This document shows positions 44,856 to 64,000 of a stretch of 64,000 nt of DNA, in pieces. This DNA comes from Kiritimatiellia bacterium (lineage in GTDB: Bacteria > Verrucomicrobiota > Kiritimatiellia > RFP12 > UBA1067): positions 39,493-103,492 of the forward strand of contig JAEDKA010000002.1 in assembly GCA_016296065.1 (NCBI GenBank), in the 5' to 3' direction. Position 1 is the first letter of the stretch. Every line of letters starts with the position of its first letter. The notes under the pieces were generated by a model. That model did not search any database and had not been told where the DNA came from. It saw only the letters and a program-made list of their open reading frames with translations. The position numbers were made by a program, and so were the translations under genes.

Positions 44856-45476
44856 TTATATCATTTTCGCGGGTTCGTAGGGGCGGACGCGAAGTGTCGC
44901 GCCGAGCGACTCGGCGATGGCGCGGCAGCGTTGCTGCTTTTCGGCGCTTGTCACCGGCTCGCCCACGACCGTCATGACGACGCTAGGCACGCTTGACGCC
45001 GACTCCTTTGCGAATTCCAGCATTGCGGGATACGCAGCCTCGCCGAACTTCGGTCTGCACAGCGACTGGTATTCCTCAGGATCGTCAGTGTTGAGGCTTA
45101 TCGAGATGCAGTCCACCTTGCCTGCGAAGAGCGCTGCGGTAGGCCTTCCGTTGATGAGGTCGGAGAGTCCGTTCGTGTTAACGCGGACGCGCAGCGACGC
45201 GTCGAGAGACTTGAGGTGTCCCGCTGCGGCGAGCAGGACGTCCAGCCGCTCGGTGGGCTCGCCGTATCCGCAGAACACGACCTCGCGGAATCGTCCGAAG
45301 TCGCACGCGTCGAGGCTCGCGACGACTTCCTCGAGCGTTGGTTCGCGCTCAAGCCACAGCGAGTCGGAGCCGTATACGCCCGGCCCGTTGTGCCTGAGGC
45401 AGAACGTGCAGTCGCAGGGGCACCTATTCGTAAGGTTGACGTATATCGAGTTCTTTACCTGGTATGTGATGGTCAT
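44856..45476 (-). CDS. radical SAM protein (small, TIGR04038-like)
   Basis: CPCDCTFC (CxxxCxxC) cluster near the N-terminus; ~206 aa; minus-strand promoter gatatgatataatac. Confidence 0.6.
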   Translation of the reverse strand: MTITYQVKNSIYVNLTNRCPCDCTFCLRHNGPGVYGSDSLWLEREPTLEEVVASLDACDFGRFREVVFCGYGEPTERLDVLLAAAGHLKSLDASLRVRVNTNGLSDLINGRPTAALFAGKVDCISISLNTDDPEEYQSLCRPKFGEAAYPAMLEFAKESASSVPSVVMTVVGEPVTSAEKQQRCRAIAESLGATLRVRPYEPAKMI

Positions 45477-45621
45477 TTCGCATGTCCTTTTGCCGCCGTT
45501 CCGCGGCATGTCCGCCGCAACGCGGTCGGCGGGTATTATATCATATCCCCCACCGCGGTGGGGGTTGGGGGAGTCCGTGTCCTGTGGTAAAATTAACTCA
45601 GTGAAAATGGGAGCTGGAGCA

Positions 45622-48600: not shown

Positions 48601-49098
48601 GCGGTCGGGTCTGATTTCGCCATGTCGATGGAGGGGGGCGGCGCGACGTTTGCGATGTCCACGGCGGACTACGATTCCGGGACGAGGCGTGCCGTCAAGA
48701 CGTTCGACTTCCCGGCGGCCGGGAGCTATTCGTTTTCGCTGCAGCTGTACCGCAACGCGTCCGGTGTTGCGTTCATGGAGCTTTCCTGCGCGAAGGGCGA
48801 GGTCGCGGCGTCAGCGTTCTCGACGGACACTTTCCATCTCGTCGGGCTTGAGGGGACCGCGCCTGAAGTCGAAGCTCCCGTCGCGGGGAAGATAGACGTT
48901 TCCGGCGGCAAGGTGACTGTAAGCATCGGCAACGCAAAGGCCGGAGTCCGCTACGGCTACAGGTTCGCCGAGCGTCTGCAGGACATCGACTCTGCCGAAA
49001 TCGTCTGGCTTGACGGCGCGGACGTAGCGGACGGGGAGCTGTTGATCGAGCTGAACGTAGTGAGGCCTTCCGGATTCTTGCGTCTCGTAGCTGAATGA
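45622..49098 (+). CDS. sialate O-acetylesterase-family (SASA/DUF303) protein with DP-repeat linker and C-terminal beta-sandwich domains
   Basis: GDVWLCTGQSNME motif; signal peptide; (D/E)P repeat at 48139-48240. Confidence 0.75.
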   Translation: MNRANAMILAAAAAIAGAFTCAWAEVSLPVVTNMVLPEGVAQARFSNVFGSDMVLQRDCEIPVWGFAPQGTAVRVSLDGGAPLSATADSTGRWIVTFPAIATPGGSHTLALSADGQADVVLANIAIGDVWLCTGQSNMEMSISWGNVVGQDEALAAAANSPNLRFYIVPRTSDRSAPHADVKPGLYVNDGESNPTDQTVGVWKVSSSDYAKVFSAAGLFFALKLQSENIGVPIGLVSSCKGGTDIEAWMSAERYNSLSGITKRNFSGDRFNPMTFPLFPMAVKGAIWYQGCNNVWAGNQKDYDVLLPAMVDEWRRNFTSAGGSFPFYIVALSAAERSTTSTPIESGWAEMRWIQHRLGESISNSGTIATVDVGGDLHPADKRTVGDRLARMALARTYGRTGFTDGGPRPTGAVGFGDTVVVSFANAAHLATTDGEYPSGFQIAGADRVFRWAEAAIVGDKVHVYAPAGMTAAYVRHAWDSYPVRNLVGDDGIPCDAFELAAANPSAGEVRPPSLRDVRVACDAATRAWSGSLRLQRLGGDTAAGTQVYVAYGTSDGGGARSGWQNVFQIPGTTSVGEYAFRLSGISAGTKYFLKAFVENGAVATSGETLSFLAPTAADADPAADIAENSWSLSPVTGAAYAGIDSSKKYALALNFGPDYAVNGDDSFVDTTEYAPSYTAVNGVSFLNMRGSDTTVNTAPSGVTWSGFTWFTGRPETSPTIAASDPLSRLLRGESDCAYLSPRIVIGGLRAGALYEVCLFNAALANVKGEATVFTVGEQSDSSAPFSFSFAQYNPFGDGRPRENVLKFRRRANANGALVWSTDRHDNAPYLYFALTVRSLDGEPDPDPDPDPDPDPDPDPDPEPDPDPDPDPDPAPVSGENIVTSGGFQIEKKLMGAFVPPDWHYEGVSYTDLASALADSGDHWSMSGSYAVIAGYIGDAEKGDFNYDGFGTTGGATDGGFPAGRGQWEGCTLFTCTATLVVPAAGKWTFALGAAVGSDFAMSMEGGGATFAMSTADYDSGTRRAVKTFDFPAAGSYSFSLQLYRNASGVAFMELSCAKGEVAASAFSTDTFHLVGLEGTAPEVEAPVAGKIDVSGGKVTVSIGNAKAGVRYGYRFAERLQDIDSAEIVWLDGADVADGELLIELNVVRPSGFLRLVAE

Positions 49099-49157: not shown

Positions 49158-52100
49158 ATGGCTGACGAACTGACCCCAATGCAGCGGCAGTATCTCGCGC
49201 TGAAGCGCGAGATACCCCCGGGCGCGATACTGATGTTCCGCCTCGGCGACTTTTACGAGATGTTCGGGGAGGACGCGGTCGTCGCGTCCCCTATACTCGG
49301 CGCGACGTTGACGCACCGCGGCAGCCAGCCGATGTGCGGCGTCCCGTACCACGCCCTCAACAGCTACCTCGCGAAGCTCATCCGCGCCGGCAAGACTGCC
49401 GCGCTCTGCGACCAGGTGGAGGATCCTAAGACGGCGAAGGGGCTCGTCCGCCGCGAGATCACCCGCATCGTCACGCCCGGCACCGTCACAGAGGACGGAC
49501 TCCTCGACGAGACCGTCAACAACTACGTCGCCGCTGTGCACGGGCTTGGGCTTGCGCTTCTCGACCTCGCGACCGGCGAGTTCACCGTCGAGTCGTTCGC
49601 AACGCAGGCGAAGTTCGACGAGGCGATGGAGCGGTACCGTCCGGCGGAGACGCTTGCCGAGACGGAGGAGAACCGCTGGACCTTCGCGCTCGACGCGGCG
49701 ACGGACGTCCTCACGCGCCACTTCAAGGTGCTTTCGCTGGACGGATTCGGACTCGAGGGGAAGGGCGACCTCATATCGGCGGCGGGTGCGCTTCTGTACT
49801 ACGTCGGCACGACGCTGCGCCATTCCATAGCGCACGTCAGGAAGCTTGCGATACGACAGTCGGACGACGCGCTCGTCCTTGACGCGGGGACTCTGCGCCA
49901 CCTGCAGCTCGTGCCGGGAGGGGACGTTCCCAAGGCGGCGTCGCTCCTCGGAGTCCTCGACGTCACCAGGACCCCCATGGGCGCGCGCACGCTCAGGAAC
50001 TGGACGGTGCGTCCGCTCGCTCGCTCCGCCGACGTCAACGCGCGGCTGGACCGCGTGCAGGCGTTCGTAGACGACCGCGGCACACTTGCCGCGCTCAGGA
50101 GGCTCCTTACGGGTGTGCGCGACCTCGAGAGGCTCGTGCAGAAGGTCGACTCGATGCGGGCGAATCCGCGCGACCTCAGGGCGCTTGCGGATTCGCTGCG
50201 TCCGATACCGGAGATTGTCGACATTCTTCGTGCCGTGACGCGGCGGGACGCCGCATCTCCTTGTGTTGGTGGGGCGCTTGGTGTTGTGACGCGGCAGGAT
50301 GCCGCATCTCCTTGTGTTGGTGGGGCGCTTGGCGCTGTGACGCGGCGGGACGCCGCATCTCCTTGCGGTGGTGAGGCGCTTGCGCCGCAGCCGGACGTCG
50401 TTTCGCTGATTGACCGCGCGATAGTCGAGGAGCCGCCGGCGCTTCTCGCGGACGGAGGCTTCATCGCGCCGGGATACGACCAGGAGCTGGACGAGCTCCG
50501 CGAGATATCGCACGAGGGGCACAAGTGGCTCGCGGAGTTCCAGGCGCGCGAGCAGGCGCGTACGGGCATCACGAAGCTGAAGGTCAAGCACGTGTCGACG
50601 TTCGGATTCGTCATCGAGATTCCCAAGGGATCCGTCTCGCAGGCGCCGGAGGACTACATCCGCCGCCAGACGCTGACGACGGGCGAGCGCTACACGACGC
50701 CAGAGCTGAAGGAGTACGAGTCCAAGGTGCTCGGCGCGCAGGAGAAGTCGATCGCGATAGAGCAGCGGCTCTTCAGGGAGATGCTTGCGACGATCGCGGC
50801 GAAGACGGTGGAGATTCAGGACACCGCGCTCGCGATAGGCGACCTCGATGCCACGCTGGCGCTGGCGGACCGCGCGCTCGCTGCGGGGTACGTGAGGCCG
50901 GTCGTCGACGATTCGGACGTTCTCGAGATCAGGGACGGGAGGCATCCGATAATCGAGCAGCTTCCCGACGCGGAACCGTTCGTCCCGAACTCGGCGTTCC
51001 TGAACACGACGACGGACCAGATAATGCTCATCACCGGGCCGAACATGGCCGGAAAGTCGACGTACATCCGCCAGGTCGCGACGATTGCGGTGATGGCGCA
51101 GATGGGCTCGTTCGTGCCCGCGTCGTCGATGCGGCTCGGAGTGCTGGACCGGGTGTTCACGCGCATCGGCGCGGGAGACGACCTCGCGCGCGGGCGGTCC
51201 ACGTTCCTCGTCGAGATGCAGGAGACCGCGAACATCCTCAACAACGCGACGCCGAAGTCGCTCATCGTCCTCGACGAGATCGGACGCGGCACGTCCACTT
51301 TCGACGGAATCTCAATCGCTTGGTCCGTGGCGGAGTACCTTCACGGCAACGCGCGCTCGAAGGCGAAGACGCTTTTCGCGACGCACTACCACGAGCTCAC
51401 CGACCTGGCGGACACCTTCAAGGGCGTGAAGAACTACACGGTGAAGGTGAAGGAGGAGGGTTCGCGCGTCGTCTTCCTGAGGCGCATTGCTCCCGGAGTC
51501 GCGGAGAAGAGCTTCGGCATCCACGTCGGCGCGATGGCGGGGCTTCCGCAGGAGGTCGTAGCGCGCGCGTCGCAGATACTGAAGAACCTCGAGGCGAACG
51601 AGATCGACGTCAACGCGAAGGAAAAAGCGGTGAGGCGTCCGAGAAAGCGGCTTTCCGACCTTCCGGGGCAGATGACGTTCTTCTCTATCGCCGTTGCGCT
51701 GTCGCTCGTGTTCCAGTGCGGCGCGGCGACGACGATACACAGGAGCTTCCGGAACAGGGACACGGGGTATGTCAACGGCGCGACGCCCGGCTTTTCGGCT
51801 CCGTCGGCCCGCAAGTCGACCGGCGCATCGTCCGTTCCGAAGGCCGTAAGGGGCAAGTCGCCGAACAAGCTGATGGGAAAGCTTGGCGAAGTGGTGGACG
51901 GCGGTCTCATCAGCGTAGTCGACGGATCGGGGAATACCCATGCCGTCTCGCTGAGGCACATCGACGCGCCGGCGGCGGACCAGCCGTTCGGTCCGGAGGC
52001 CGCGAAGTTCCTCGGCGACCTGCTGCGCGGGAAGGAGATCGAGGTGCTATGGACGAAAAAAGACGCCGCAGGCGCGATTTCCGGCGATGTATACTACAGG

Positions 52101-52286
52101 CACGAGAAGTTCGGGATGGTCGACGCCAACATGACGATGGTGAAGAACGGCGCGGCGTGGCAGGCCTACAGGGACACGGAAAAGACATACGCGGCGGCGG
52201 AAAAGGAGGCGCGCGCGGCGAAGCGCGGGCTTTGGTCCGCGCCGAAGCCAGTGAGGCCGTCCGAATGGCGAAAGAGGAAGAAATGA
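49158..52286 (+). CDS. mutS: DNA mismatch repair protein MutS with internal tandem repeats and a C-terminal staphylococcal-nuclease-like (SNase) domain
   Basis: GPNMAGKSTYIRQ Walker A; DEIGRGTSTFDG; C-terminal ~190 aa with SNase motifs (VVDGSGNTHAVSLRHIDAPAADQPFG…AKRGLW) and no intervening stop. Confidence 0.85.
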   Translation: MADELTPMQRQYLALKREIPPGAILMFRLGDFYEMFGEDAVVASPILGATLTHRGSQPMCGVPYHALNSYLAKLIRAGKTAALCDQVEDPKTAKGLVRREITRIVTPGTVTEDGLLDETVNNYVAAVHGLGLALLDLATGEFTVESFATQAKFDEAMERYRPAETLAETEENRWTFALDAATDVLTRHFKVLSLDGFGLEGKGDLISAAGALLYYVGTTLRHSIAHVRKLAIRQSDDALVLDAGTLRHLQLVPGGDVPKAASLLGVLDVTRTPMGARTLRNWTVRPLARSADVNARLDRVQAFVDDRGTLAALRRLLTGVRDLERLVQKVDSMRANPRDLRALADSLRPIPEIVDILRAVTRRDAASPCVGGALGVVTRQDAASPCVGGALGAVTRRDAASPCGGEALAPQPDVVSLIDRAIVEEPPALLADGGFIAPGYDQELDELREISHEGHKWLAEFQAREQARTGITKLKVKHVSTFGFVIEIPKGSVSQAPEDYIRRQTLTTGERYTTPELKEYESKVLGAQEKSIAIEQRLFREMLATIAAKTVEIQDTALAIGDLDATLALADRALAAGYVRPVVDDSDVLEIRDGRHPIIEQLPDAEPFVPNSAFLNTTTDQIMLITGPNMAGKSTYIRQVATIAVMAQMGSFVPASSMRLGVLDRVFTRIGAGDDLARGRSTFLVEMQETANILNNATPKSLIVLDEIGRGTSTFDGISIAWSVAEYLHGNARSKAKTLFATHYHELTDLADTFKGVKNYTVKVKEEGSRVVFLRRIAPGVAEKSFGIHVGAMAGLPQEVVARASQILKNLEANEIDVNAKEKAVRRPRKRLSDLPGQMTFFSIAVALSLVFQCGAATTIHRSFRNRDTGYVNGATPGFSAPSARKSTGASSVPKAVRGKSPNKLMGKLGEVVDGGLISVVDGSGNTHAVSLRHIDAPAADQPFGPEAAKFLGDLLRGKEIEVLWTKKDAAGAISGDVYYRHEKFGMVDANMTMVKNGAAWQAYRDTEKTYAAAEKEARAAKRGLWSAPKPVRPSEWRKRKK
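50236..50388 (+). repeat. 3 x 51-bp in-frame tandem repeat inside mutS (17-aa repeat VTRRDAASPCVGGALGV)
   Basis: three consecutive near-identical 51-mers. Confidence 0.75.
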
Positions 52287-52372: not shown

Positions 52373-54475
52373 ATGGCAAAGCGTGACATTCCGCTCGATC
52401 ATGTGAGAAACTTCGGCATTATGGCCCACATCGACGGTGGCAAGACCACCACGTCGGAGCGTATTCTCTACTATTCGGGCAAGAACTACAAGATCGGCGA
52501 GGTGCATGACGGCGCCGCGACGATGGACTTCATGGTGCAGGAGCAGGAGCGCGGCATCACGATTCAGTCCGCCGCGACGTGCGTTCAGTGGGGCGACTAC
52601 CGCCTGTCGCTGATCGACACTCCCGGACACGTCGACTTCACGGCTGAGGTGGAGCGCTCGCTCCGCGTTCTCGACGGCGCCGTGGCTCTCTACTGCGCGG
52701 TCGGCGGCGTGCAGCCCCAGTCCGAGCAGGTGTGGCGCCAGTCCGAGAAGTACAAGGTGCCGAAGATCGCGTTCGTCAACAAGATGGACCGCGTCGGCGC
52801 GAACTTCTACAGCGTCATGGAGCAGATGAAGAACCAGCTCGGCGCGAACCCGGTTCCGGTCGTCATCCCGATCGGCGCGGCGGAGTCGTTCGAGGGTGTC
52901 ATCGACCTCATCAAGATGAAGGCGCTCTACTTCGACATGAAGAGCCTCGGCAAGACGGTCCTCGAGAAGGACATCCCCGAGGAGTACGTCGAGAAGGCCA
53001 AGGAGTGGCGCCAGAAGATGCTCGAGAGCGCGGCCGAGCAGGACGATGCGCTTATGGAGAAGTTCTTCGCGGGCGAGGAGCTCACGAACGAGGAGATCGA
53101 GATGGGCCTCCGCAAGGGTTGCCTCTCCCGCGCCATCACTCCCGCGTTCTGCGGCACGGCGTTCAAGGACAAGGGCATCCAGCCGCTCCTCGACGGCGTG
53201 TGCAAGTATCTTCCCTCCCCGCTCGACGCGGGCGCTGCGGTTTCGCAGGACAACCCCGACGAGAAGCGCGAGGTCAGCGACGATGCGCCTTTCTGCGGTC
53301 TTGCGTTCAAGATCATGAACGACCCGAAGTCCGGCGGCAAGATCACGTTCGTGCGCGTCTACTCGGGCACGATGAAGCTTGGCGCCGAGATGCTCGACTC
53401 CACGATCAACAAGGAGCAGCGCATCTCCCGTCTCTTCCGCATGCACGCCGCCAAGCAGGAGCCTCTCGACGAGGCGCATGCCGGCGACATCGTCGCGTGC
53501 GTCGGCCTCACCGAGACCAGGACGGGCGACACGCTCTGCGACCCCGAGCATCCGATCACGCTCGAGTCCATCGACTTCCCCGCGCCCGTCATCTCGGTCG
53601 CCGTCAAGCCGAAGAGCCGCGGCGACAACGAGAAGCTCGGCGTTGCGCTGCACGCGCTCGCGATGGAGGACCCGACGTTCGTCGTCAGCTTCGACCAGGA
53701 GACTTCCGAGACGATCATCGCCGGCATGGGCGAGCTCTACCTTGAGGTCATCGTCGACCGTCTGAAGCGCGAGTTCAACGTCGAGTGCGACGTGGGCGCC
53801 CCGCAGGTCGCGTACCGCGAGACGATCACGGTTCCGGTCGACAACGAGTACAAGCACGTCAAGCAGTCCGGCGGCCGCGGCCAGTACGCGCACGTCTGCC
53901 TCAAGCTCGCTCCGCAGGAGCCGGGCAAGGGCTTCGAGTTCGTCAACGAGGTCAAGGGCGGCGTGATTCCGACGGAGTACATCCCGGCGGTCGAGAAGGG
54001 CGTCCGCAAGGCGCTCGAGTCGGGTCCGCTCGCGGGCTTCCCGGTCGTGGACGTCAAGGCGACGGTCTACTTCGGTTCCTATCACGAAGTCGACTCGAAC
54101 GAATTCGCGTTCATCACCTGCGCGATGCAGTGCTTCAAGCAGGCGTTCATGAAGGCGAAGCCGCAGCTCCTCGAGCCGATGATGGACGTCGAGGTCGTGG
54201 TGCCCGAGCAGTACATGGGCGCGGCGAACGGCTCGATCAACCAGCGTCGTGGCCGCATCGAGGGCATGGAGGACCGCGCGGGCGTGAAGCTCCTCAAGGC
54301 GACGGTCCCGCTCGGCGAGATGTTCGGCTACTCGAACGCGATCCGCACCGTGACCCAGGGCCGCGGCTCCTTCACGATGATCTTCAAGCAGTACGAGCCC
54401 GTCCCGAAGAACATCGCGGCGGAGGTCGTCGAGAAGCGCATCAAGGAAGGCAAGGTCCGCCCGATGGCCGACTGA
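52373..54475 (+). CDS. fusA: translation elongation factor G
   Basis: [31 protein letters not shown]; full-length EF-G. Confidence 0.9.
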
Positions 54476-54494
54476 CCGTCGACGGGTCATTGAC

Positions 54495-54532
54495 CAAAAA
54501 AAGGCGCGGCGCATCTGCCGCGCCTTTTTTGC
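54495..54532 (+). terminator. rho-independent terminator after fusA
   Basis: aaggcgcggcgcatctgccgcgcc followed by tttttt. Confidence 0.65.
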
Positions 54533-54579
54533 TGTTTGGCACACGTCGGACGCAATATTTGGTATAATATTCGCCCGAT

Positions 54580-55896
54580 ATGAACAAACTGGCGATTGCT
54601 CTCAACAAGACACTTGCCGACGCTGCGGGATTTCTGTCCCCCGCCGGCAAGCGGATGTATTTTCCGTACGGCGGCATCCTCGGTCAGGGTGCTGAGGCGA
54701 AGACCTGCGACATCAACGCGACGGTCGGCATGGCGTTTGAGGAGGACGGGTCCCCTCTGGTCATGGACTGCTTCAGGACGGGCGTAAACCTCGACAAGAA
54801 GTCGTTCCTCTATGCAGGCAGCTTCGGTCTTCCCGCTCTGCGCAAGGCCTGGAAGGAGATGGAGTTCGTGAAGAATCCGTCCCTCAAGGGCAAGCGGTTC
54901 TCGTCACCCGTCGTGACCAACGCGCTGACGCACGGCATCCGCGTGTGCGCGGAGCTGTTCGCGGGTCCTTCCGACACGCTGGTCTGCCCCGACCTCTACT
55001 GGGACAACTACGAGCTCATATTCCAGGAGGCTGTCGGCTGCAAGATCGTCCACTTCAACACCTTCAGGCGCGGCGCGTTCGACGCGGCGGCGATGAAGGA
55101 GGCGCTTCTCGCCCCCGGCGCGAAGAAGATACTCATCCTCAACTTTCCCAACAACCCGACGGGCTACACGGCGACGCTTGAGGACGCGAAGAAGATCGTC
55201 TCGGCCGTGCGCGCGGCGGCGGCGAAGGGCAAACGCATCGTCGTGGTGTGCGACGACGCGTACTTCGGGCTCGTGTACGAGAAGGGCGTCCACGGCGAGT
55301 CGCTGTTCGCCGAGTTCGCGGACCTTCACCGGAACGTCCTCGCAGTCAAGCTCGACGGTACGACGAAGGAAGACTACGTCTGGGGTCTCCGCGTCGGCTT
55401 CGTCAGCTTCGCTTTCAAGGGCGCGACTGAGGATCAGCTCAAGGCGCTTGAGGCGAAGGCCGCCGGCAACGTGCGCTCGGGCATCTCCAACGCGACGGCG
55501 ATCGGGCAGCATCTCGCGATACGCGCGTTCGCCGATCCGGACTATGTCGCGCAGAAGCGAGAGAAGTTCGCCGTCCTCAAGAAGCGCTACCACGAGATTC
55601 GCGTCATCCTCAGGACGCATCCGGAGTATGCGAAGCACTTCGAGGCGATGCCGTTCAACTCGGGCTACTTCATGTGCGTGAAGCCCATCGGCGTGGAAGC
55701 CGAGAAGGTGCGCCGCCATCTGATAGAGAAGTACTCCGTAGGAACGATCGTCCTCTCGGGGCTCATCCGACTCGCGTTCTCGACCGTCCCGACCGCACGT
55801 CTGGGCAAGCTCTTCGCGTCCGTTGACGCGGCAATCGCCGACCTCGTCGGCGAAACCACGAAAACCAAAACCTCCAAGAGGAGAAATGCGAAATGA
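54580..55896 (+). CDS. class I/II PLP-dependent aminotransferase
   Basis: NFPNNPTGY and VCDDAYF motifs. Confidence 0.75.
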   Translation: MNKLAIALNKTLADAAGFLSPAGKRMYFPYGGILGQGAEAKTCDINATVGMAFEEDGSPLVMDCFRTGVNLDKKSFLYAGSFGLPALRKAWKEMEFVKNPSLKGKRFSSPVVTNALTHGIRVCAELFAGPSDTLVCPDLYWDNYELIFQEAVGCKIVHFNTFRRGAFDAAAMKEALLAPGAKKILILNFPNNPTGYTATLEDAKKIVSAVRAAAAKGKRIVVVCDDAYFGLVYEKGVHGESLFAEFADLHRNVLAVKLDGTTKEDYVWGLRVGFVSFAFKGATEDQLKALEAKAAGNVRSGISNATAIGQHLAIRAFADPDYVAQKREKFAVLKKRYHEIRVILRTHPEYAKHFEAMPFNSGYFMCVKPIGVEAEKVRRHLIEKYSVGTIVLSGLIRLAFSTVPTARLGKLFASVDAAIADLVGETTKTKTSKRRNAK

Positions 55897-57377
55897 AGAA
55901 AGCACTAGCGTCAGTTCTCGCGGCTCTGTCGATTTCCGCCTTTGCGGCGTGGGATCGCGTCGGATCGCTTCAGGTCGCGGATGTCGCCGCACAGGGCGAG
56001 GCCGCGGCAAAGGTCGGGCAGATGATCGGAAACCCGTTCGCGGCGGCGGCGCTCGCGGCGGCGCTGGCGGACCTGCCGACGGTCAAGTTCTTCGGGCCGG
56101 CTCGCGAAAAGGCGACGCTCCTCGTCCCGCTCTTCCTCGACACGAAGGACGTCGCGGAGAATCCGGCGGACGCGCTCGACAGTCTTGAGTACGCGGTGCT
56201 GTACCCGGTCTCGATCTCGAAGGAGGAGTTCATGAAGCGCCACGAGGGATCCGTCGAGAAGGACGGCGTGGTGATCGTGAAGGGCGATCTTTCCGGCGAG
56301 GACAAGGACGATGAGAAGACGTACGTCGTGTTCTCGCAGGACGGCAAGTGGGCAGGCGCCTCCGACGACATCGAGCAGGCCAAGCTCGCGCTCGCCGAAG
56401 TCAAGGTCGCGGAGAAGCCGCTCAAGGGCGAGGTCGCGCGTCTGCGCGTCGGGCCCAAGGCCGTCAAGTCCCTGGTCGAGGCGGTGAAGGCCTCGGCAAA
56501 GGAGATGTCGCCGGAAGACAAGGCCGCGCTCGACTCGCTCAAGTCCTTCGCCGTCGGGTTCAAGGTCTCGGATCGCGGCGTGGACATGAACGGTTCCGTG
56601 TCGTTCGCGGACGGATCCGAATTCGCCAAGGTCGGGCTCAAGCCGCTCGGTGCCGATCCATTCGCCTTCGCGGACAAGAGCGTGCTCGCGGCAAGCGTAA
56701 AGGCGGAGGACGCCGGCAACAACGACATCATGACGGACAAGAAGTGGAACGATCTGCTCGCCGTCGTGAAGAAGCACGGAATCGACCTCGCCAAATTCTT
56801 CTCGCGCGGGAAGACGGGCATCGCCGAAATATACACCTTCGACATTCCCGCGTTCGTGAAGTACATGACGGAAAACATGGAGGCGCTGTCCAAGGTCGAC
56901 TCCGAGAAGCTTCTCGAGGACGTCAGCAAGATCGGCGAGGGCGAGAAGTTCGCCGCGAAGGCCCCGGCGTATGCCTCCGCAGTCTCCGTCAAGGACTTCG
57001 AGTCGCAGTGGAAGATCGGCGAGCGCTTCGCCGCGACGCTTCCCGAGGCTGCGGGCAGGAAGCCTTTCTACGTCTACTTCTGCTCCGTCTCCTCCATCCT
57101 CAAGGCTGTCGCCCCTCACGCCCTCGCGCAGGTCCCGGAGGAACAGCGCGCGGCGATGAAGCCCGTCGTCGACGCCTTTGCGGTCGAGACGAAGACGGGA
57201 ATCGCTTTCATGCTGTGGCGTCCGAAGGAGGGCGGCTCGATGCGCATGACGCTCCGCTTCTCGGCGGACGAGATACGCGGCGTCGGCGGGCTGGTAGGCG
57301 CGGCCATGATGCTTGGCGGCCCTGCGCATACCGGAGTCGACGTTGAAGATGGCGACGACGGAGACGATGAAGACTGA
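55893..57377 (+). CDS. hypothetical secreted protein with acidic C-terminus
   Basis: signal peptide; Ala/Lys-rich; DGDDGDDED tail. Confidence 0.6.
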   Translation: MKKALASVLAALSISAFAAWDRVGSLQVADVAAQGEAAAKVGQMIGNPFAAAALAAALADLPTVKFFGPAREKATLLVPLFLDTKDVAENPADALDSLEYAVLYPVSISKEEFMKRHEGSVEKDGVVIVKGDLSGEDKDDEKTYVVFSQDGKWAGASDDIEQAKLALAEVKVAEKPLKGEVARLRVGPKAVKSLVEAVKASAKEMSPEDKAALDSLKSFAVGFKVSDRGVDMNGSVSFADGSEFAKVGLKPLGADPFAFADKSVLAASVKAEDAGNNDIMTDKKWNDLLAVVKKHGIDLAKFFSRGKTGIAEIYTFDIPAFVKYMTENMEALSKVDSEKLLEDVSKIGEGEKFAAKAPAYASAVSVKDFESQWKIGERFAATLPEAAGRKPFYVYFCSVSSILKAVAPHALAQVPEEQRAAMKPVVDAFAVETKTGIAFMLWRPKEGGSMRMTLRFSADEIRGVGGLVGAAMMLGGPAHTGVDVEDGDDGDDED

Positions 57378-58188
57378 GGCGTACGCCAAGGTAAACCTCA
57401 CGCTTGAGGTGTTCGGGGTGCGTGGTGACGGATACCACGCGCTCCGTTCCATAGTGGCCCCCATATCGCTGTCGGACATGCTTGAGATCGAGCCGTCCGA
57501 CGGACTTTCGTCCGACACGGGATATCCCGACGACCTCATCCTCAAGGCGGCGCGCGCGCTCGATCCGTCGCGCGGCGCGCGCTTTCGCGTTACGAAGCGC
57601 ATCCCGGCTGGGGGCGGACTAGGCGGCGGTAGCGCGGACGCGGCGGCGGCGCTTGTCGCGCTGAACGAGATGTGGGGCCTCGGACGCACCCGAGAGGAGC
57701 TCGCCGAAATCGGGGCGGCGGTCGGGTCGGACGTTCCGGCGCTCGTCCTCGGCGGACCCGTGATAATGACCGGACGCGGCGAGTTCGTGGAGCGCGTGGA
57801 GTGTCCGCGCCTCGACCTCGTTCTCGTGAACCCCGGGATAAACACCTCGACGCGCGAGGTGTACGCGCGCACAGCGGTGCGCGGGGAGGGCGGACCGTCC
57901 GCGACGGACGCGTGCCTTGAGGCGCTGGAGTCGGGCGAAATCGGCCTTATAGCGGAGACTTTTGCAAACGACCTCGAGGCGGCGGCTTGCGCGATGCATC
58001 CGGAGATCGCCGACGCGATGTCCGCCCTGCGCGCGGAAGGCGCGCTGGGCGTGACGATGAGCGGAAGCGGCTCCTCGGCGTTCGGAATCGTGGAGTCCGG
58101 CTCGCGCGCGCACGAGATCGCGCTCGCGCTGCGCGGACGCGGACTTTCCGCATGGGCGGTTCACACGATCGGCGCAGATATGGTATAA
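57349..58188 (+). CDS. ispE: 4-diphosphocytidyl-2-C-methyl-D-erythritol kinase
   Basis: AKVNLTLEV…RGDGYH and PAGGGLGGGSADAAAAL GHMP-kinase motifs. Confidence 0.8.
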   Translation: MATTETMKTEAYAKVNLTLEVFGVRGDGYHALRSIVAPISLSDMLEIEPSDGLSSDTGYPDDLILKAARALDPSRGARFRVTKRIPAGGGLGGGSADAAAALVALNEMWGLGRTREELAEIGAAVGSDVPALVLGGPVIMTGRGEFVERVECPRLDLVLVNPGINTSTREVYARTAVRGEGGPSATDACLEALESGEIGLIAETFANDLEAAACAMHPEIADAMSALRAEGALGVTMSGSGSSAFGIVESGSRAHEIALALRGRGLSAWAVHTIGADMV

Positions 58189-58204
58189 TATATTTTCAAA
58201 CGGC

Positions 58205-58278
58205 TGTCCCATGGTGTAGCGGCTGCACACGGGTTTTTGATACCTAGAGTTCTGGTTCGACTCCAGATGGGACAACCA
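58205..58278 (+). tRNA. tRNA-Gln (TTG), anticodon stem weakened, discriminator A
   Basis: arm sequence matches E. coli tRNA-Gln (GGTTTTTGATACC); T-arm TCTGG-TTCGACT-CCAGA; acceptor TGTCCCA/TGGGACA; CCA encoded. Confidence 0.65.
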
Positions 58279-58372
58279 GCGGGGGATTTCGTTTATCTTG
58301 CAGCCCCTTGCATTGCGTCGGCGGATATGATATACTATGCGCCAATCATTCACCGAAAAGGAAGATAAAGAC

Positions 58373-58669
58373 ATGGTTAAGATCAGAATGCGTCGCACGG
58401 GCTGCACCAATCATGCAACCTACCGCATCGTCGCCGCGGACTCCCGTTCGCCCCGCGACGGCAAGTTCCTTGAGATTCTCGGCTGGTACGACACGCAGAT
58501 CAAGGACGAGAACTTCAAGCTCGACCTTCCGCGCGTTGAGTACTGGCTCTCGAAGGGCGCCAAGCCCTCCACGACGGTGGCGTCGCTCATCCGCCGTGCG
58601 AAGAACCCCAACCTCAAGCCGCATCACGCGACCCCGGCCAAGAAGACCGAGGCGAAGAAGGAGGCCTAA
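58373..58669 (+). CDS. rpsP: 30S ribosomal protein S16
   Basis: MVKIRMRRTG…YRIVAADSRSPRDG. Confidence 0.9.
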   Translation: MVKIRMRRTGCTNHATYRIVAADSRSPRDGKFLEILGWYDTQIKDENFKLDLPRVEYWLSKGAKPSTTVASLIRRAKNPNLKPHHATPAKKTEAKKEA

Positions 58670-58672
58670 GCA

Positions 58673-59041
58673 ATGGGTATCAAGCTTATAGACAAGATCA
58701 ACGCCGAGCAGACTGCGAAGCTCTCCGAGAAGAAGTTCCCCGAGTTCCGCACCGGCGACATCGTCCGCGTCTCCATCAAGATCAAGGAAGGCGAGAAGTT
58801 CCGCATCCAGGACTTCGAGGGCAAGGTCCTCGCAATCGACAACGGCCGTTCCAACGTTGCGGGCAACTTCACCGTCTCCCGCGATGCCTTCGGCGTCCGC
58901 GTCGAGAAGCTCTTCCCGTTCAACAGCCCGTGGATCCAGGCGATCAAGGTCGTCAAGAAGGGCAATGGCTGGCGCGCGAAGCTCTACACGGAGCGCACCT
59001 TCTGCTCGCACAAGGCTGTCCGCAAGCTGGTGAAGAAATAA
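58673..59041 (+). CDS. rplS: 50S ribosomal protein L19
   Basis: FRTGDIVRV…FEGKVLA…GVRVEKLFP…RAKLY. Confidence 0.9.
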   Translation: MGIKLIDKINAEQTAKLSEKKFPEFRTGDIVRVSIKIKEGEKFRIQDFEGKVLAIDNGRSNVAGNFTVSRDAFGVRVEKLFPFNSPWIQAIKVVKKGNGWRAKLYTERTFCSHKAVRKLVKK

Positions 59042-59169
59042 TCCCAGCGCACAGAGCCGCAAGTTCGGTGAATGAAACAGGCCGTCCCCAATGCGGGGGC
59101 GGTCAGTTTTTTGGTATAATATCACACGCTTAACACCAAAAGGAACAACCGCATTTCTAAGAAAGGAAA

Positions 59170-60354
59170 ATGAAAATGGCTGTTACGGAAACGACAACGG
59201 TATCATGGGGATCCAGGCTCGGGAATTCCATAAAGGGTATTCTCGTGGGACTCGCCCTGTTCGTGATAGGATTCCCGGTTCTGTTCTGGAACGAAGGCAA
59301 CAGCGTGAAGACCGCCAAGGCGCTCGACGAGGGCGAGGGGGCGTGCATACCGGTCGAGTCGATCGAGAAGGTCGATCCCGAGATGGAGGGACAGCTTGTC
59401 CACATGACAGGGATGGCAAAGACTTCGGATGTCCTTTCCGACGACCAGTTCGGCGTTTCCGCTACGGCGATCGCGCTCGCGAGGAAGACCGAGATGTTCC
59501 AGTGGGTCGAGCACTCCGAGACGAAGGAGACGAAGAAGCTCGGCGGCAAGGTCGAGCGGACCACGACATACACCTACTCGCAGGAGTGGGTCGAGAACGC
59601 GGTCGACTCGAGCGGATTCAAGGAGCAGGGGCACGACAACCCCGGAATGATTGAGTTCCCGTCCGAGGAGAAGCGCGCCGCCAACGTCACGTTCGGCGCA
59701 TTCCGCCTGAGCGAAGGCCAGATCGGACGCATCGGATCGGGGCAGCGGTACGCCTTCCCGACTGGATTCGTCTGCAAGGTCGAGCGCGTGCAGATACAGG
59801 GCGGGACGATCTACGTTCCCAACAAGGCTACGCGCGACAACGAAAAGAACAACCGCGACGTCGCCTCGCAGCCGCGCGTGGGCGACATGCGCGTCAGCTT
59901 CAGCGTCGTGTATCCGCACGACATATCCATCGTGGCGAAGCAGAAGGGAGACACCTTCGTCGGCTATCTCGCGAAGACCAAGAAGAAGATCGACATGCTC
60001 TCCGACGGCGTCAAGGACGCGGCGGAGATGTTCGAGGCGGCGCGCTCGGCCAACACGATGATGACGTGGATCGTTCGTCTTGTCGGCTTCCTCCTCATGT
60101 TCTTCGGACTGTCCATGGTCTTCAAGCCGCTGTCGGTGCTTGCGGACGTGCTGCCTATACTCGGCGACATCGTCGGAATCGGCACTGGACTCGTCGCAGG
60201 CGTCATTGCGTTCGTCTGCGCGCTCGTCACCATCGCCATCGCATGGATATTCTACCGTCCGGTCCTCGGCATCCTGCTCCTCGCCGCAGCAGGCGCGGCA
60301 ATCTTCCTCCTCTGGAAGAAAAAACAGGAGAAGAAGCCCGCCGTGGCCGCATAA
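59170..60354 (+). CDS. hypothetical membrane protein (TMEM43/DUF1625-like topology)
   Basis: N-terminal TM; long soluble region; C-terminal multi-TM segment. Confidence 0.55.
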   Translation: MKMAVTETTTVSWGSRLGNSIKGILVGLALFVIGFPVLFWNEGNSVKTAKALDEGEGACIPVESIEKVDPEMEGQLVHMTGMAKTSDVLSDDQFGVSATAIALARKTEMFQWVEHSETKETKKLGGKVERTTTYTYSQEWVENAVDSSGFKEQGHDNPGMIEFPSEEKRAANVTFGAFRLSEGQIGRIGSGQRYAFPTGFVCKVERVQIQGGTIYVPNKATRDNEKNNRDVASQPRVGDMRVSFSVVYPHDISIVAKQKGDTFVGYLAKTKKKIDMLSDGVKDAAEMFEAARSANTMMTWIVRLVGFLLMFFGLSMVFKPLSVLADVLPILGDIVGIGTGLVAGVIAFVCALVTIAIAWIFYRPVLGILLLAAAGAAIFLLWKKKQEKKPAVAA

Positions 60355-60425
60355 ACGCCAAAAATTTGGTATAATCCATCCATAAGTCAGTCAACAAACA
60401 AGCATTGCAAAGGAGCAAAAAGACA

Positions 60426-61340
60426 ATGAAGAAGCTTACGACACTCGCGCTCGCGGCGTTCGCAGCAGCCGCGGCTTTCGCTGAAGGCGGAAACCTCCGC
60501 TACTCCATCATGGTCAACAAGTTCGAGAACAAGGCCAACTGGCGCGGCCAGTGGGAGCTTGGCGACGCTTGGGGCACGATTCTCACCGACCAGCTTGTTC
60601 AGAGCGGCAAGTTCATCGTCCTCGGCGAGGCAGACATGCGCGGCGCGGCGATGCAGGAGCAGGACCTCGCGGCGTCCGGACGCACCGCCGGCGGCAAGAA
60701 GGCTCCCCAGATGGGACGCATGACGCCCGCGCAGCTGCTCGTCAAGGGCGCGATAACCCACGTGCAGGAGACGAAGGGCGGCAGCGGAGGCTTCTCGCTC
60801 GGAAAGGGCATCCTAAGCGGAGTGTCCATTGGCGGCAGTGCAGGTGGAGCGGAAATAAACATCACGATCTACATCTGCGACTCCGCGACCGGACAGGTCA
60901 AGGCTTCCAAGAGCGTGATCGGCAAGAGCGGAAAGCGCGGCATCGGTCTCGGCTACCACGGCAACAAGCTCGGCGGCCTCACCGGCGACCTCGAGGGCTT
61001 CGAGAAGGACAACATGGGCCAGGCCTGCACCGATGCGGTCACGCAGGCCGTCGAATTCCTCGTCGCCCAGCTCGAATCGATTCCGTGGGAAGGCTCCGTC
61101 TCTCTCGTCAAGCCAGACAAGCTCCTCATCAACCGCGGGTCGCGCGAAGGCGTCGCGGTCGGCATGAAGTTTGACATCGGCAAGGTCGAGGAGATCGTCG
61201 ACGAGGATACCGGAGAGGTGCTCGACAGCGAGATGACAAAAATCGGCACTGTCGTCGTCACCGAGGTGAAGGAGAAGATCTCCTACACGACTCCGCTCGA
61301 AGGCGCCGAGAAGGGCATGGGCGTCCATCCCGCGAAGTAA
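60426..61340 (+). CDS. secreted protein, CsgG/LpoB-like
   Basis: signal peptide; Gly-rich; weak CsgG-like pattern. Confidence 0.45.
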   Translation: MKKLTTLALAAFAAAAAFAEGGNLRYSIMVNKFENKANWRGQWELGDAWGTILTDQLVQSGKFIVLGEADMRGAAMQEQDLAASGRTAGGKKAPQMGRMTPAQLLVKGAITHVQETKGGSGGFSLGKGILSGVSIGGSAGGAEINITIYICDSATGQVKASKSVIGKSGKRGIGLGYHGNKLGGLTGDLEGFEKDNMGQACTDAVTQAVEFLVAQLESIPWEGSVSLVKPDKLLINRGSREGVAVGMKFDIGKVEEIVDEDTGEVLDSEMTKIGTVVVTEVKEKISYTTPLEGAEKGMGVHPAK

Positions 61341-61364
61341 AGTGAAGCGCAGCCAAACTTCGTG

Positions 61365-61399
61365 AAAAAGGGGCCGGCATCCGCCGGTCCTTTTTTTTC
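61365..61399 (+). terminator. rho-independent terminator
   Basis: ggggccggcatccgccggtcc followed by ttttttttc. Confidence 0.7.
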
Positions 61400-61454
61400 A
61401 TGCCCTGAAAATTTTCCGCACCCCCGTTGACAAGTCCACCCGATTTATGATAAA

Positions 61455-61470
61455 GTAATCGCGTGATTAC
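61455..61470. promoter_or_regulatory. GTAATC-N4-GATTAC palindrome overlapping the TetR gene promoter (likely autoregulatory operator)
   Basis: perfect 6-bp inverted half-sites 20 nt upstream of the TetR gene ATG. Confidence 0.4.
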
Positions 61471-61489
61471 GATAAAAGGAGTTTCGGCG

Positions 61490-62128
61490 ATGGAGAAGAC
61501 ATTTAAGAGAAAGGCACGGCAGGACGGCGTGGAGACGCGCGAGGCGATACTCGCCGCGGCGGAGGCGGAGTTCGCGGAGAAGGGCTTCGCGCTCGCTTCG
61601 GCGCGGGAGATATGCCGCCGCGCGCGGGCGAACTCGGCTCTTATGAACCGCTACTTCGGCTCGAAGGAGGCACTCTACCGCCTCGTCGCGAAGCGGCTCT
61701 TCGGCGACCTCGGCGCGCCGCTCGCGCGCCTCCACGAGAAGGCGGTCGACGAAAAGTCGTGGCGCGCGGCCGTGAGCGAATGGGTGGACGACATGCTCTT
61801 CATGACGATCCCGACCGAGCGCGCCCAGAAGCTCTGCGCGGGTCTATTTCGCCACGAGGTCACGCGGCCGACGAAATTCCACGACGAGTTCAAGGAGGCG
61901 TTTGGCCGTCCTGTCTACGAAGGGCTTAGGAAACTCCTTGCCATGAAGGTGAAGGATGAAGAGCGGCTGGAGCTTCTGACGACTTCCATCTGGGCGCAGG
62001 TCTCGGTCTATGCGCTTGCGGACGTCAAGTGGCACAAATCCTTCCGTCCGGCAGGCGTCGACAACCGCGCCTGGGCCGAGAAGGTCGCCGCGCACATCTG
62101 CGAAGGCATTTTTACACGTGTGAAATAA
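61490..62128 (+). CDS. TetR/AcrR-family transcriptional regulator
   Basis: N-terminal HTH REAILAAAEAEFAEKGFALASAREICRRA. Confidence 0.75.
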   Translation: MEKTFKRKARQDGVETREAILAAAEAEFAEKGFALASAREICRRARANSALMNRYFGSKEALYRLVAKRLFGDLGAPLARLHEKAVDEKSWRAAVSEWVDDMLFMTIPTERAQKLCAGLFRHEVTRPTKFHDEFKEAFGRPVYEGLRKLLAMKVKDEERLELLTTSIWAQVSVYALADVKWHKSFRPAGVDNRAWAEKVAAHICEGIFTRVK

Positions 62129-62134
62129 GGAGGA

Positions 62135-62368
62135 ATGGCAATGAAGAAGTTGATTGCGATAGTTCTTGCTATATCGATGCTGGGGTCGGGCTGCTGCACG
62201 GTCGCCGCGGTTAGCAATGACCTGCCCTGGGCGGCACCCGTTACAGTGCCGGTTGATATCGTGTTGATGCCGGTAGAAGTCCTCGGTCTCGAGGTTCTAG
62301 CCAGGGTCGAGACGGAAGGCAAGTGTGGCGCAATGGTCTTTATCGCACCTTTTGGAGGAGCGAAATGA
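62135..62368 (+). CDS. small lipoprotein
   Basis: lipobox LGSGC; 77 aa. Confidence 0.5.
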   Translation: MAMKKLIAIVLAISMLGSGCCTVAAVSNDLPWAAPVTVPVDIVLMPVEVLGLEVLARVETEGKCGAMVFIAPFGGAK

Positions 62369-62445
62369 ATGGCATGGGAATGAAGAACGCGTGGAAGAGG
62401 AATGCTGCCCGTTCTACACGGCGGAAACTTGAAAGGATGGCAAAA

Positions 62446-64000
62446 ATGAAAAGACTGATGATTGCGGCAATGGCTGTCGCGACGGCTTGCGCGACGTGCG
62501 AGAGCCGTGCGGACGAGAACCGCCTCAACCTGTGGCCGCTTGTCGGCTACAACGACGGCGCACTAGACTTCATCTGGCCGCTCGGACATTTCAAGGACTC
62601 CGACGAGTGGCGGTTTTTCCCGATTATCCGCGACCGCGGCCTGTTTTGCATTTTCCCCGAGCTCTGGTTCACGGACGATGGATTCGCCGTGCTTCCGCTG
62701 GCCGCGGAATACGATTTCGGGCGCGGGACGCTCTTCCCCGTTCTCTGGTGGGACTTCGAGGGTTCGGACATAACGCACAGCGTGTTCCCTGCCTACTATT
62801 ACCATGGCGGCAAGTACGGGACGACTTTCTGGGCTGCGTGCGGGCTAGCGGGGTTCAAAAGCGACAAGGGAAAGGTCTTTCATCATCGCTTTCTCCCTCT
62901 CTACTACTGGGACCGCGGCGACTTCTTCTCCATTCCGTATTCGCGCTATCGCAGCGGCGGACATCTGAAGAGCCGTTTCTTCTTCGGCCTCGCGGGATGC
63001 GACTCGGACGCAAACGGCGACTACGAGGCGTCGTGGCTCTTCCCGCTCTATGCACACGACAAAGCCAATGACGAGTTCTTGACTCCGCTCTTCGGCAAGA
63101 CAAAAGACGCGAACTGGCTAATCCCGTTTTACTACCACGACGAGAGTCTGACGCTCACTCCGCTCTTCGGCAAGACGGTCGAGGCCAACTGGACGCTGCC
63201 GCTCTACTACAAGGACAAGGAGAAGTTCCTGACGCTGATTGGCGGCAATAGCGGTGACGCCAACTGGGTCGTGCCGTTTTACTGGCGCGACAAGAGGACT
63301 TTCGCTTCGCTTCCCTATTGGCGGCAGCTTGGGTCGGACGGCGAGATCGACAGGGCGTTTTCTCTCCCGCTTCTCTCGGGCTACGAACGCGACGACAAGG
63401 CCGGCGATCGGCTTCTCTATCTTCTCATGGGGCTTGGCGGCCATGTCTGGAATGATGCGACAGGCGGCGCGAGCTGGGTGTTCCCGCTTTTCTACAGCGA
63501 CCGCGAAAGCTTCTACACTCTCCTCTACGGGCACAACCCGCGCCGCACCTGGCTCTTCCCCGTCTACTTCGACGGCGAGGAACGCACATACATAACGCCG
63601 CTCTACGGGCGCAACAAGAGGGACGGCAGCGACTGGCTCATTCCCCTCTACTACCGCAACAAGGAGTCGTTCATCACTCCGCTCTACGGGAGGTCGGGCG
63701 AGGCGTCGTGGCTCTTCCCGCTCTACTGCCGCGACGAGTCGCAGTTCAACACCCTCGTCTATTCGCATTGGGACGACGCGAAGAAGGGAACGCGCGGATT
63801 CTTCTCCCTGCCGCTTCTCTCGGGTGCCAATTGGGAGACGAATTCATGCGACAAGACATGGTTCACGCTCGCGGGGCTCGTCGGCGGATCGTCCAATGCC
63901 TCGGGCTCGCACAAGGCCAACTGGGCGCTTCCTCTTTTCGTCCGCGAAGAGAACGAGTCGTTCTATTCCATCCCGTTCGGCTGGAGCGGCGGCGGCTCGG
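62446..64000 (+). CDS. large repeat protein (~22-aa W-[LV]-F-P-L-Y-Y…F-x-T-P-L-Y-G repeats), 3' partial (runs off the window end)
   Basis: hand translation of frame 1 shows no stop from 62446 to 64000; signal peptide MKRLMIAAMAVATACA; >20 tandem degenerate repeats; absent from the ORF track, presumably because it has no in-window stop. Confidence 0.65.
   Translation, partial: MKRLMIAAMAVATACATCESRADENRLNLWPLVGYNDGALDFIWPLGHFKDSDEWRFFPIIRDRGLFCIFPELWFTDDGFAVLPLAAEYDFGRGTLFPVLWWDFEGSDITHSVFPAYYYHGGKYGTTFWAACGLAGFKSDKGKVFHHRFLPLYYWDRGDFFSIPYSRYRSGGHLKSRFFFGLAGCDSDANGDYEASWLFPLYAHDKANDEFLTPLFGKTKDANWLIPFYYHDESLTLTPLFGKTVEANWTLPLYYKDKEKFLTLIGGNSGDANWVVPFYWRDKRTFASLPYWRQLGSDGEIDRAFSLPLLSGYERDDKAGDRLLYLLMGLGGHVWNDATGGASWVFPLFYSDRESFYTLLYGHNPRRTWLFPVYFDGEERTYITPLYGRNKRDGSDWLIPLYYRNKESFITPLYGRSGEASWLFPLYCRDESQFNTLVYSHWDDAKKGTRGFFSLPLLSGANWETNSCDKTWFTLAGLVGGSSNASGSHKANWALPLFVREENESFYSIPFGWSGGGS

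Follow-up and report, generated by a model that had tools for sequence, protein, structure and literature searches.

In Pseudomonas aeruginosa, the DUF2339 protein Arc3A gives protection against the phospholipase toxin Tle3: it prevents the build-up of lysophospholipids, and it associates with Arc3B, a protein predicted to span the periplasm. In many bacteria aas genes (LplT-acyltransferase) are neighbors of arc3, with an esterase gene adjacent, and the mechanism of the pathway is still open (Ting et al., eLife 2022, PMC8926400). Here we analyze a stretch of 64,000 nucleotides (nts) of the Kiritimatiellia bacterium contig JAEDKA010000002.1 (positions 39,493 to 103,492 of the forward strand), which we call the window. 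The window ends inside a gene for an exported protein made of aromatic-rich repeats, the repeats are modelled as an open ribbon of beta-hairpins, and relatives of the gene lie next to homologs of the lysophospholipid-repair genes.

The original prediction, made from the sequence alone, was of a long frame, missing from the list of open reading frames (ORFs), that runs off the end of the window and encodes a signal peptide followed by more than 20 degenerate repeats of about 22 residues. We observe that frame 1 has zero stops over the 545 codons of 62365-64000, and that 62446-63999 translates into 518 residues without interruption. The ORF list shows short out-of-frame ORFs at this place because ORFs that leave the source are not listed, as had been supposed. 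It had also been proposed that a longer contig would reveal the stop, and that is the case. Contig L001 is co-linear with the window from 54256 to 64000 at a DNA identity of 96.4-97.6%, and in it the frame runs 740 bases further, to a stop at about window position 64740. There is no stop or frameshift inside the window, and the frame is kept beyond it. The complete protein has 764 residues from its MKRLM start, or 791 from an ATG upstream; the homolog P0001, with 791 residues, is 97% identical to the window protein. The frame is kept in 241 homologs (E<=1e-3). We regard the existence of the gene, together with its structural class, as near certain.

The gene could start at ATG 62446, 62437, or 62365. 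The start is likely one of the first two, because ATG 62446 has an AAGGA ribosome-binding site 8 nts 5′ of it, and because the homologs mostly begin at the equivalent MKRLM or MKKL. ATG 62365, which overlaps the stop codon of an upstream lipoprotein gene, is a possible alternative, and its equivalent is the one chosen by the gene caller in P0001.

That the protein is repetitive can be seen in three ways. A BLOSUM62 autocorrelation compared to 200 shuffles peaks at lags of 25 (z 6.5), 148 (z 5.5), 50 (z 4.2), and 13 residues (z 4.1). Half-units of the form h-h-P-h-aromatic appear 20 times in the window fragment, versus 0.03 times per composition shuffle. And an iterated hidden Markov model (HMM) of the 25-residue unit counts 11 full units over the whole protein, of which the window part has 10, and a median of 7 units per protein across 257 family members. 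The unit has 25 residues and not about 22, it consists of two half-units of 12-13 residues, and it is nested in a super-repeat of 148 residues that in the core region begins at GLAG/GLGG motifs. Thus a count above 20 holds for half-units, not for full units. On the other hand, the motif core that had been read by eye is close to the family consensus, D-A-S-W-L-F-P-L-Y-Y-R-D-K-D-S-F-L-T-[LP]-[LP]-Y-G-R-x-D. In this consensus positions 4-10 are nearly always hydrophobic or aromatic, except for a fixed Pro at position 7, and there is no alternation of polar and non-polar residues. Tandem Repeats Finder reports no tandem repeat at the DNA level; the repeats are seen at the protein level alone. The repeat core is preceded by an N-terminal block of half-units whose family-invariant residues include W57, P58, W71, P72, F85, P86, F97, and P98 in P0001 numbering, and after it comes a C-terminal beta domain, polar and basic, with a conserved ...FIPVWR as its end.

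The signal peptide announced at the N-terminus is there, MKRLMIAAMAVATACATCESRA followed by DENR. The close homologs read ...AGRA and then DENR, and against the lipobox pattern [LVI][ASTVI][GAS]C the window protein has only a poor VATAC. The closest homologs lack a Cys in their signal peptides, and therefore cleavage by signal peptidase I is the likely outcome for the window protein. Elsewhere in the family, 169 of 264 members carry a lipobox pattern, with LLxGC in the place where the window protein's signal ends, and the distant members keep G23 and C24 almost without exception. Read in this way, the sequences predict export of the window protein via a Sec signal, and predict most of its relatives to be lipoproteins.

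The repeat type could not be recognized by eye, and databases do no better: Pfam, NCBIfam, and PHROGs, searched with the window fragment and with a full-length homolog, report nothing above cut-off. All matches are sub-threshold, namely the ORF29-like family PF23698, DUF5342, and the YqgU propeller. PF23698 matches 6 of 47 members (best E-value 1.7e-5), and a literature search on this family found nothing. A sequence-profile search of the PDB returned only chance immunoglobulin matches (E ~0.2), and the Pfam MORN models (PF02493/PF07661, consensus YxGxWxxGxxxGxG) have no match in the window fragment or in the members scanned. One NCBIfam model does recur. NF047486, for the C-terminal domain of Leptospira LA_1737, matches 27 of 50 distant members at E<=0.01 (best 5.6e-16), with individual scores of 25.6-35.3 bits against a curated cut-off of 60, and does not match the window protein, P0001, P0060, P0088, or P0105 at E<=1. 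A distant sequence relationship of the family to LA_1737, short of membership, is plausible.

The family is large. A search of 5.8 billion proteins returned 241 matches at E<=1e-3 (E-values down to 0), all of them hypothetical proteins of 720-880 residues, almost none with a Pfam domain; the named ones are from metagenome-assembled genomes of Kiritimatiellae or Lentisphaerae. When 1.84 billion representatives were searched exhaustively with a profile, 1,140 clusters at 50% identity passed E<=1e-3, of which 357 passed E<=1e-30; among the 150 matches of this search that were listed, lengths go from 212 to 1220 residues. Scanning one genome per species we obtained 76 loci, often two paralogs per genome, nearly all of them in Kiritimatiellae of the gut or rumen, or in metagenome genomes that carry the label Verrucomicrobia or Lentisphaerae. 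The repeat number varies and the ends are the conserved parts, because the most invariant residues sit in the N-terminal half-units and in the C-terminal ~60 residues, and because a mini-paralog of 291 residues keeps the C-terminal domain. This mini-paralog is a lipoprotein encoded in the same cluster (L008, 4294-5169) with few repeat units. The center of the window protein has a different affinity from the rest: the part encoded by 62953-63999 is 89-94% identical to a subfamily of 826-residue lipoproteins, versus 78-89% to the proteins that are its closest when the full length is compared. Because of this higher identity to the lipoprotein subfamily, the sequences suggest mosaic evolution of the central region, or recombination between paralogs.

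We modelled a full-length homolog with AlphaFold2 using an alignment of 89 sequences. The mean predicted local distance difference test (pLDDT) is 75, and the predicted template modelling score (pTM) is 0.38. The model has ~80 short strands at residues 100-580, three-residue helices 148 residues apart, and long strands (8-14 residues) in the C-terminal third. The pLDDT is below 50 at P0001 residues 24-100, and the first ~50 residues of the N-terminal block are modelled poorly. Window residues 170-518, modelled by themselves, reach a pLDDT of 90.3 and a pTM of 0.48; this model has 45 strands and lacks helices. When the secondary structure is mapped onto the sequence, the hairpin turns fall at RDxE and GxxGD, and each ~10-residue strand is broken at the conserved Pro (xDWL / FPL / YYR) into segments of 3-4 residues. 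A pTM of 0.48 in the presence of a pLDDT of 90 suggests an open and elongated shape. Thus, the repeats are predicted by these models to form an open, elongated antiparallel beta-hairpin ribbon or meander, and not a closed barrel, propeller, or shell.

Do structural comparisons tell a different story? A Foldseek search of the PDB with the core model reports teneurin YD shells and Rhs cores of type VI secretion systems (T6SS) first, followed by engineered OspA and the CPAP G-box, with probabilities 0.77-0.99. The template modelling (TM) scores are 0.12-0.15 for the YD/Rhs and OspA matches, and at most 0.28 for the CPAP G-box, normalized to that short target. The full-length model also matches the ApoB100 beta-belt and LptD with TM ~0.1, and against BFVD, MORN-repeat proteins are prominent at the top with probability 0.99-1.0 and TM <=0.25. 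The likeness of the models to YD/Rhs shells, MORN repeats, and OspA appears to be local only.

The top matches (E-values from 1.6e-7 to 1e-3, probability up to 1.0) bring up the idea of a divergent YD/Rhs-type shell enclosing a cargo or toxin, and YYRD at the hairpin turn recalls YxYD. We give this idea hardly any weight. The YD/Rhs matches superimpose with a root-mean-square deviation of ~50 Å in addition to their low TM. The RHS_repeat and YD models (PF05593/TIGR01643) do not match in any of the more than 100 members tested (the window fragment, 47 members, 8 long members, and 8 + 50 members versus NCBIfam). Only 4 of 264 members contain the autoprotease motif DPxG[LWIV], and Pfam assigns nothing to the C-terminal domain, where no toxin domain is seen. 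The proteins carry a Sec or lipoprotein signal and not the parts for T6SS or Tc delivery, and no VgrG, PAAR, or immunity genes occur among the called genes of the loci examined.

The original prediction had asked for a check of a beta-propeller or beta-solenoid, and the models, which are antiparallel hairpin meanders, do not support either. Hsv2, virginiamycin lyase, AztD, and WD40 proteins do appear low in the Foldseek lists, and there is the sub-threshold match to the YqgU propeller (Pfam E 0.16). But the propeller matches have TM <=0.15, a 25-residue unit within a 148-residue super-repeat does not fit blades of 40-50 residues, and the best analogs are antiparallel ribbons. Moreover, for a closed propeller a pLDDT of 90 should come with a high pTM, and here it is 0.48. 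A propeller or a parallel beta-solenoid is therefore very improbable.

An integral outer-membrane beta-barrel, either a very large one or a C-terminal barrel with an N-terminal passenger, would provide an outer-membrane channel through which lipophilic substrates handled by a major facilitator superfamily (MFS) transporter are taken up or exported. We consider it improbable, if less so than the previous two. The full-length model finds LptD, FimD, FecA, AlgE, and OmpC (E-values from 1e-4 to 5e-2), the C-terminal third has long strands of 8-14 residues, and in the repeat strands a W sits at one end and a YY pair at the opposite one, reminiscent of an aromatic girdle. Yet the TM scores of those matches are only 0.07-0.12, and the long C-terminal strands are very polar (the C-terminal 211 residues are 33.6% charged, with an isoelectric point of 9.2). 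The repeats have seven consecutive hydrophobic residues in place of an alternation, and the Pro kink splits the strands into segments of 3-4 residues. Of 264 members, 165 terminate in Arg and 4 in F, W, or Y, whereas a beta-signal ends in an aromatic residue. Finally, lengths of 291-1220 residues are at odds with a closed barrel, whose size would be fixed, and the open shape suggested by the pTM argues in the same direction.

What might this ribbon do? The gene neighborhoods of the relatives offer a suggestion. In L004, L006, L008, and L010, the repeat gene is next to an MFS gene that matches LplT and the N-terminal half of Aas (PRK08633, E 1.8e-61), and whose C-terminal extension carries NHPAMVD, an HX4D acyltransferase motif. 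Because of this match and this motif, the neighbor is predicted to be a fusion of a lysophospholipid flippase (LplT) and an acyltransferase. Other recurring neighbors are DUF2339, DUF3999 (32.7 bits versus a cut-off of 30), a 284-residue alpha/beta hydrolase, and a 226-residue Ser_hydrolase/cutinase-like protein. A typical order is TetR, hydrolase, LplT-acyltransferase, repeat protein, 226-residue hydrolase, DUF2339, and DUF3999. In L033, DUF2339 lies between two paralogs of the repeat gene. That DUF3999 is Arc3B is something we infer, since PMC8926400 does not name that Pfam family. One DUF3999 protein beside DUF2339 (L012, 8481-9821) starts with a signal peptide and carries a transmembrane helix at its C-terminus.

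We counted eight gene families in a tblastn survey of 89 loci, 76 of them from reference genomes and many on short contigs. In the 76 reference-genome loci, the co-located cluster genes share the strand of the repeat gene in 119 of 119 cases. The available flanks hold one or more cluster genes in 40 of these loci, and in 21 of 23 close orthologue loci; for at least one of DUF2339, DUF3999, or LplT-acyltransferase the counts are 30 of 76 and 16 of 23, respectively. A TetR gene is in the flanks of 21 of the 76, always on the same strand.

We tentatively propose, with a confidence that falls a little short of an even chance, that the repeat protein assists, as an accessory in the envelope, a response to lysophospholipids or membrane damage, and that its place of action is the periplasm or the outer membrane. 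TetR would act as a repressor that frees the operon when lipophilic or amphiphilic compounds appear. The seven consecutive hydrophobic or aromatic residues of each hairpin may join into a continuous aromatic stripe along the ribbon, and this stripe could bind a lipid, a lysolipid, or a membrane surface. The ribbon might then hand lipids to the LplT-acyltransferase and Arc3A, or else shield the envelope alongside them. A more specific version is that we have here a new envelope component of Arc3/LplT-Aas repair in bacteria of the Planctomycetes-Verrucomicrobia-Chlamydiae (PVC) group, namely a ribbon, tethered to the outer membrane or periplasmic, whose Pro-kinked aromatic stripe would bind lysolipids and fatty acids, or conduct them between the outer membrane and the inner-membrane flippase-acyltransferase; this version we consider doubtful.

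Several observations weigh against the proposed role in lipid repair. LplT, DUF2339, and DUF3999 genes are absent from the whole 64-kb window. In the nearest orthologue, L013, the downstream gene encodes a 399-residue protein with no Pfam match, unrelated to the downstream genes of L006. The lipid link comes from more distant orthologs and from guilt by association because the window has no lipid genes and the L013 downstream gene is unrelated. About half of the family loci have no cluster gene, mostly distant paralogs or short contigs, and the P0060 locus has zero. The repeat protein is hydrophilic overall (grand average of hydropathy -0.5), and no lipid-binding domain is detected in it. As for the stripe or groove, its geometry is derived from the sequence and from a string of secondary structure.

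A rival reading is a surface or outer-membrane-anchored repeat protein, structural or adhesive and comparable to coat or surface antigens of Leptospira, that is controlled by TetR and has no part in lipid repair, the lipid genes being mere companions in the operon. We find this unlikely, and still deserving of attention. Most members are lipoproteins, and the distant ones match weakly the Leptospira LA_1737 domain. Several paralogs per genome, a variable length, and a mosaic center are typical of surface proteins, and lipid genes are lacking at about half of the loci. A neighboring protein of 160 residues, moreover, matches a surface-repeat model, LA_2272. What is hard to explain in this way is that every one of the 119 cluster genes is on the same strand, and that many species have the repeat gene placed between LplT and Arc3A. 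The strongly conserved N- and C-terminal blocks are also unlike those of antigens under diversifying selection.

The 160-residue protein is exported, and its gene is located directly 5′ of the repeat gene in L008 (7493-7975) and ~2 kb 5′ of it in L006 (5494-5976). It scores 31.9 bits with the NCBIfam LA_2272 model versus a cut-off of 25, and its C-terminus, ...LPLLRVWW, recalls the ...LLFIPVWR of the repeat protein. A profile comparison using hhalign shows no kinship between the two. Literature searches on LA_1737 and LA_2272 did not return anything useful.

In the window, the repeat gene appears from the sequence to be the last one in a TetR operon that consists of a promoter, a palindrome, tetR, a small lipoprotein gene, and the repeat gene (Table 1). 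A terminator-like hairpin seems to separate this operon from the preceding CsgG-like gene. The ORF list has tetR starting from GTG 61463; its start is likely ATG 61491, preceded by an AAAGGAG ribosome-binding site. The palindrome is kept 5′ of tetR in 18 of 28 loci, including loci in which TetR is only 73-89% identical. The gaps between the three genes go from 6 to ~80 nts, and the scan found no terminator-like site between them. There is no convincing terminator 3′ of the repeat gene in L001 or L013. The lipoprotein has no Pfam match, and its homologs are found in the same cluster in L001, L013, L017, L031, and L079; in the last of these, the homolog has TetR on one side and LplT on the other. 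Directly 5′ of the operon, at 59170-61340 (+), are the genes for a TMEM43-like protein (Pfam E 9e-76) and a CsgG-like lipoprotein. L026 has the order TMEM43-CsgG-TetR-LplT...repeat gene-hydrolase-DUF2339. Because L026 shares its TMEM43-CsgG-TetR start (662-2828) with the window, the operon of the window looks like a compacted version of the cluster of its relatives.

Table 1. Features of the repeat-protein gene and its operon, in window positions.
Feature	Position	Strand	Basis or remark
Terminator-like GC hairpin followed by T8, after the CsgG-like gene	61373..61399	+	Sequence; hairpin flagged on the minus strand in the scan
Promoter-like site, TTGACA-18-TAAAGT	61427..61456	+	Promoter scan
Palindrome TAATCGCGTGATTA, just past the promoter -10	61456..61469	+	Candidate TetR operator
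tetR, TetR-family regulator	61491..62128	+	Pfam TetR_N E 2.8e-12
Lipoprotein gene, 75-77 residues (MKKLIAIVLAISMLGSGC...), lipobox LGSGC	62141..62368	+	Between tetR and the repeat gene; translation
Repeat-protein gene, 5′ two-thirds (518 of ~764 codons)	62446..64000	+	No in-frame stop; gene cut by the window edge
Signal peptide MKRLMIAAMAVATACATCESRA, predicted cleavage before DENR	62446..62517	+	Read from the sequence
N-terminal block of half-units of 13-14 residues (NLWPL, FIWPL, RFFPI, CIFPE, AVLPL, TLFPV, SVFPA)	62518..62950	+	Many family-invariant residues
Core repeat region, most of the window's 10 predicted 25-residue beta-hairpin units	62953..63999	+	HMM unit positions, autocorrelation, model

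Further upstream in the window there are housekeeping genes, for MutS, EF-G, an aminotransferase, S16, and L19, before the TMEM43-like and CsgG-like genes. The MutS (49158-52286, +), with domains I-V, bears a C-terminal staphylococcal-nuclease (SNase) domain at residues 930-1027. A protein of 1393 residues at 44917-49098 (+) has a sialic-acid-specific acetylesterase (SASA) domain, and no domain is assigned to the rest of it. In an ORF at 41552-42481 (+), ankyrin repeats are joined to part of a DDE transposase domain; this ORF may be a remnant of an insertion sequence or a fusion.

Kiritimatiellae are common yet barely cultured bacteria of the gut and the rumen, and their envelope biology is almost unknown. 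The family is large, lacks annotation, is centered in PVC bacteria with several paralogs per genome, and has a repeat architecture of beta-hairpins that is predicted confidently yet fits no existing class. Its recurrent placement between the LplT-acyltransferase and Arc3A/Arc3B makes it a testable candidate for a missing periplasmic or outer-membrane partner in lysophospholipid repair. If the more specific version of the proposed role, with a stripe that binds or conducts lipids, were true, bacterial lipid-handling proteins would gain a new structural class, with the Leptospira LA_1737 proteins as distant relatives. If the lipid link is false, it is one more uncharacterized exported repeat protein. 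The beta-hairpin repeat variant of this family is new; its link to a lipid-repair pathway is suggestive but unproven.

How does the family compare with known systems? Leptospira LA_1737 is the sole catalogued model with repeated sequence similarity to the family, in its distant members. Both are exported beta-rich repeat proteins of diderm bacteria, and they differ in that one belongs to the Spirochaetes and the other to the PVC group, with the window protein and its close relatives having no match. The YD/Rhs proteins (teneurins, T6SS Rhs cores, Tc toxins) also have beta-hairpin repeats, of ~20 residues, with an aromatic-x-aromatic-Asp motif at the turn, and they differ from the family in their closed shell, their autoprotease and toxin, their export route, and their gene context.

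MORN repeats, the single-layer sheet of OspA, and the CPAP G-box are elongated ribbons of antiparallel beta-hairpins, as we propose for our repeats (Foldseek probability 0.96-1.0). MORN proteins are classically linked to membranes. MORN repeats use ~23 residues per hairpin versus our unit of 25, and our consensus is Pro-kinked and far richer in aromatics, with 19.6% of W+F+Y in the repeat region; the TM over these matches is at most 0.28.

The periplasm-spanning lipid-groove proteins, namely the jellyroll of LptA, LptC, and the LptD N-terminus, and the beta-taco of TamB and AsmA-like proteins, share with the family long runs of antiparallel strands and, if the proposed role is right, a hydrophobic lining and a place in an envelope lipid pathway. 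LptD chains are among the Foldseek matches of the full-length model at E ~1e-4, but with TM ~0.11, and the AsmA, DUF490, and OstA models had no match in Pfam scans covering all families. We see the likeness to these lipid-groove proteins as a possible functional analogy only.

Finally, the Arc3 and LplT/Aas system of P. aeruginosa differs in that such a repeat protein is not mentioned in the passages of PMC8926400 that were consulted, and in that the window itself has none of these genes. Its arc3-aas-estA neighborhood, as described in that paper, matches the clusters of DUF2339, DUF3999, LplT-acyltransferase, and esterase found around the family, and the topology of the L012 DUF3999 protein, a signal peptide and a C-terminal helix, matches the one predicted there for Arc3B.

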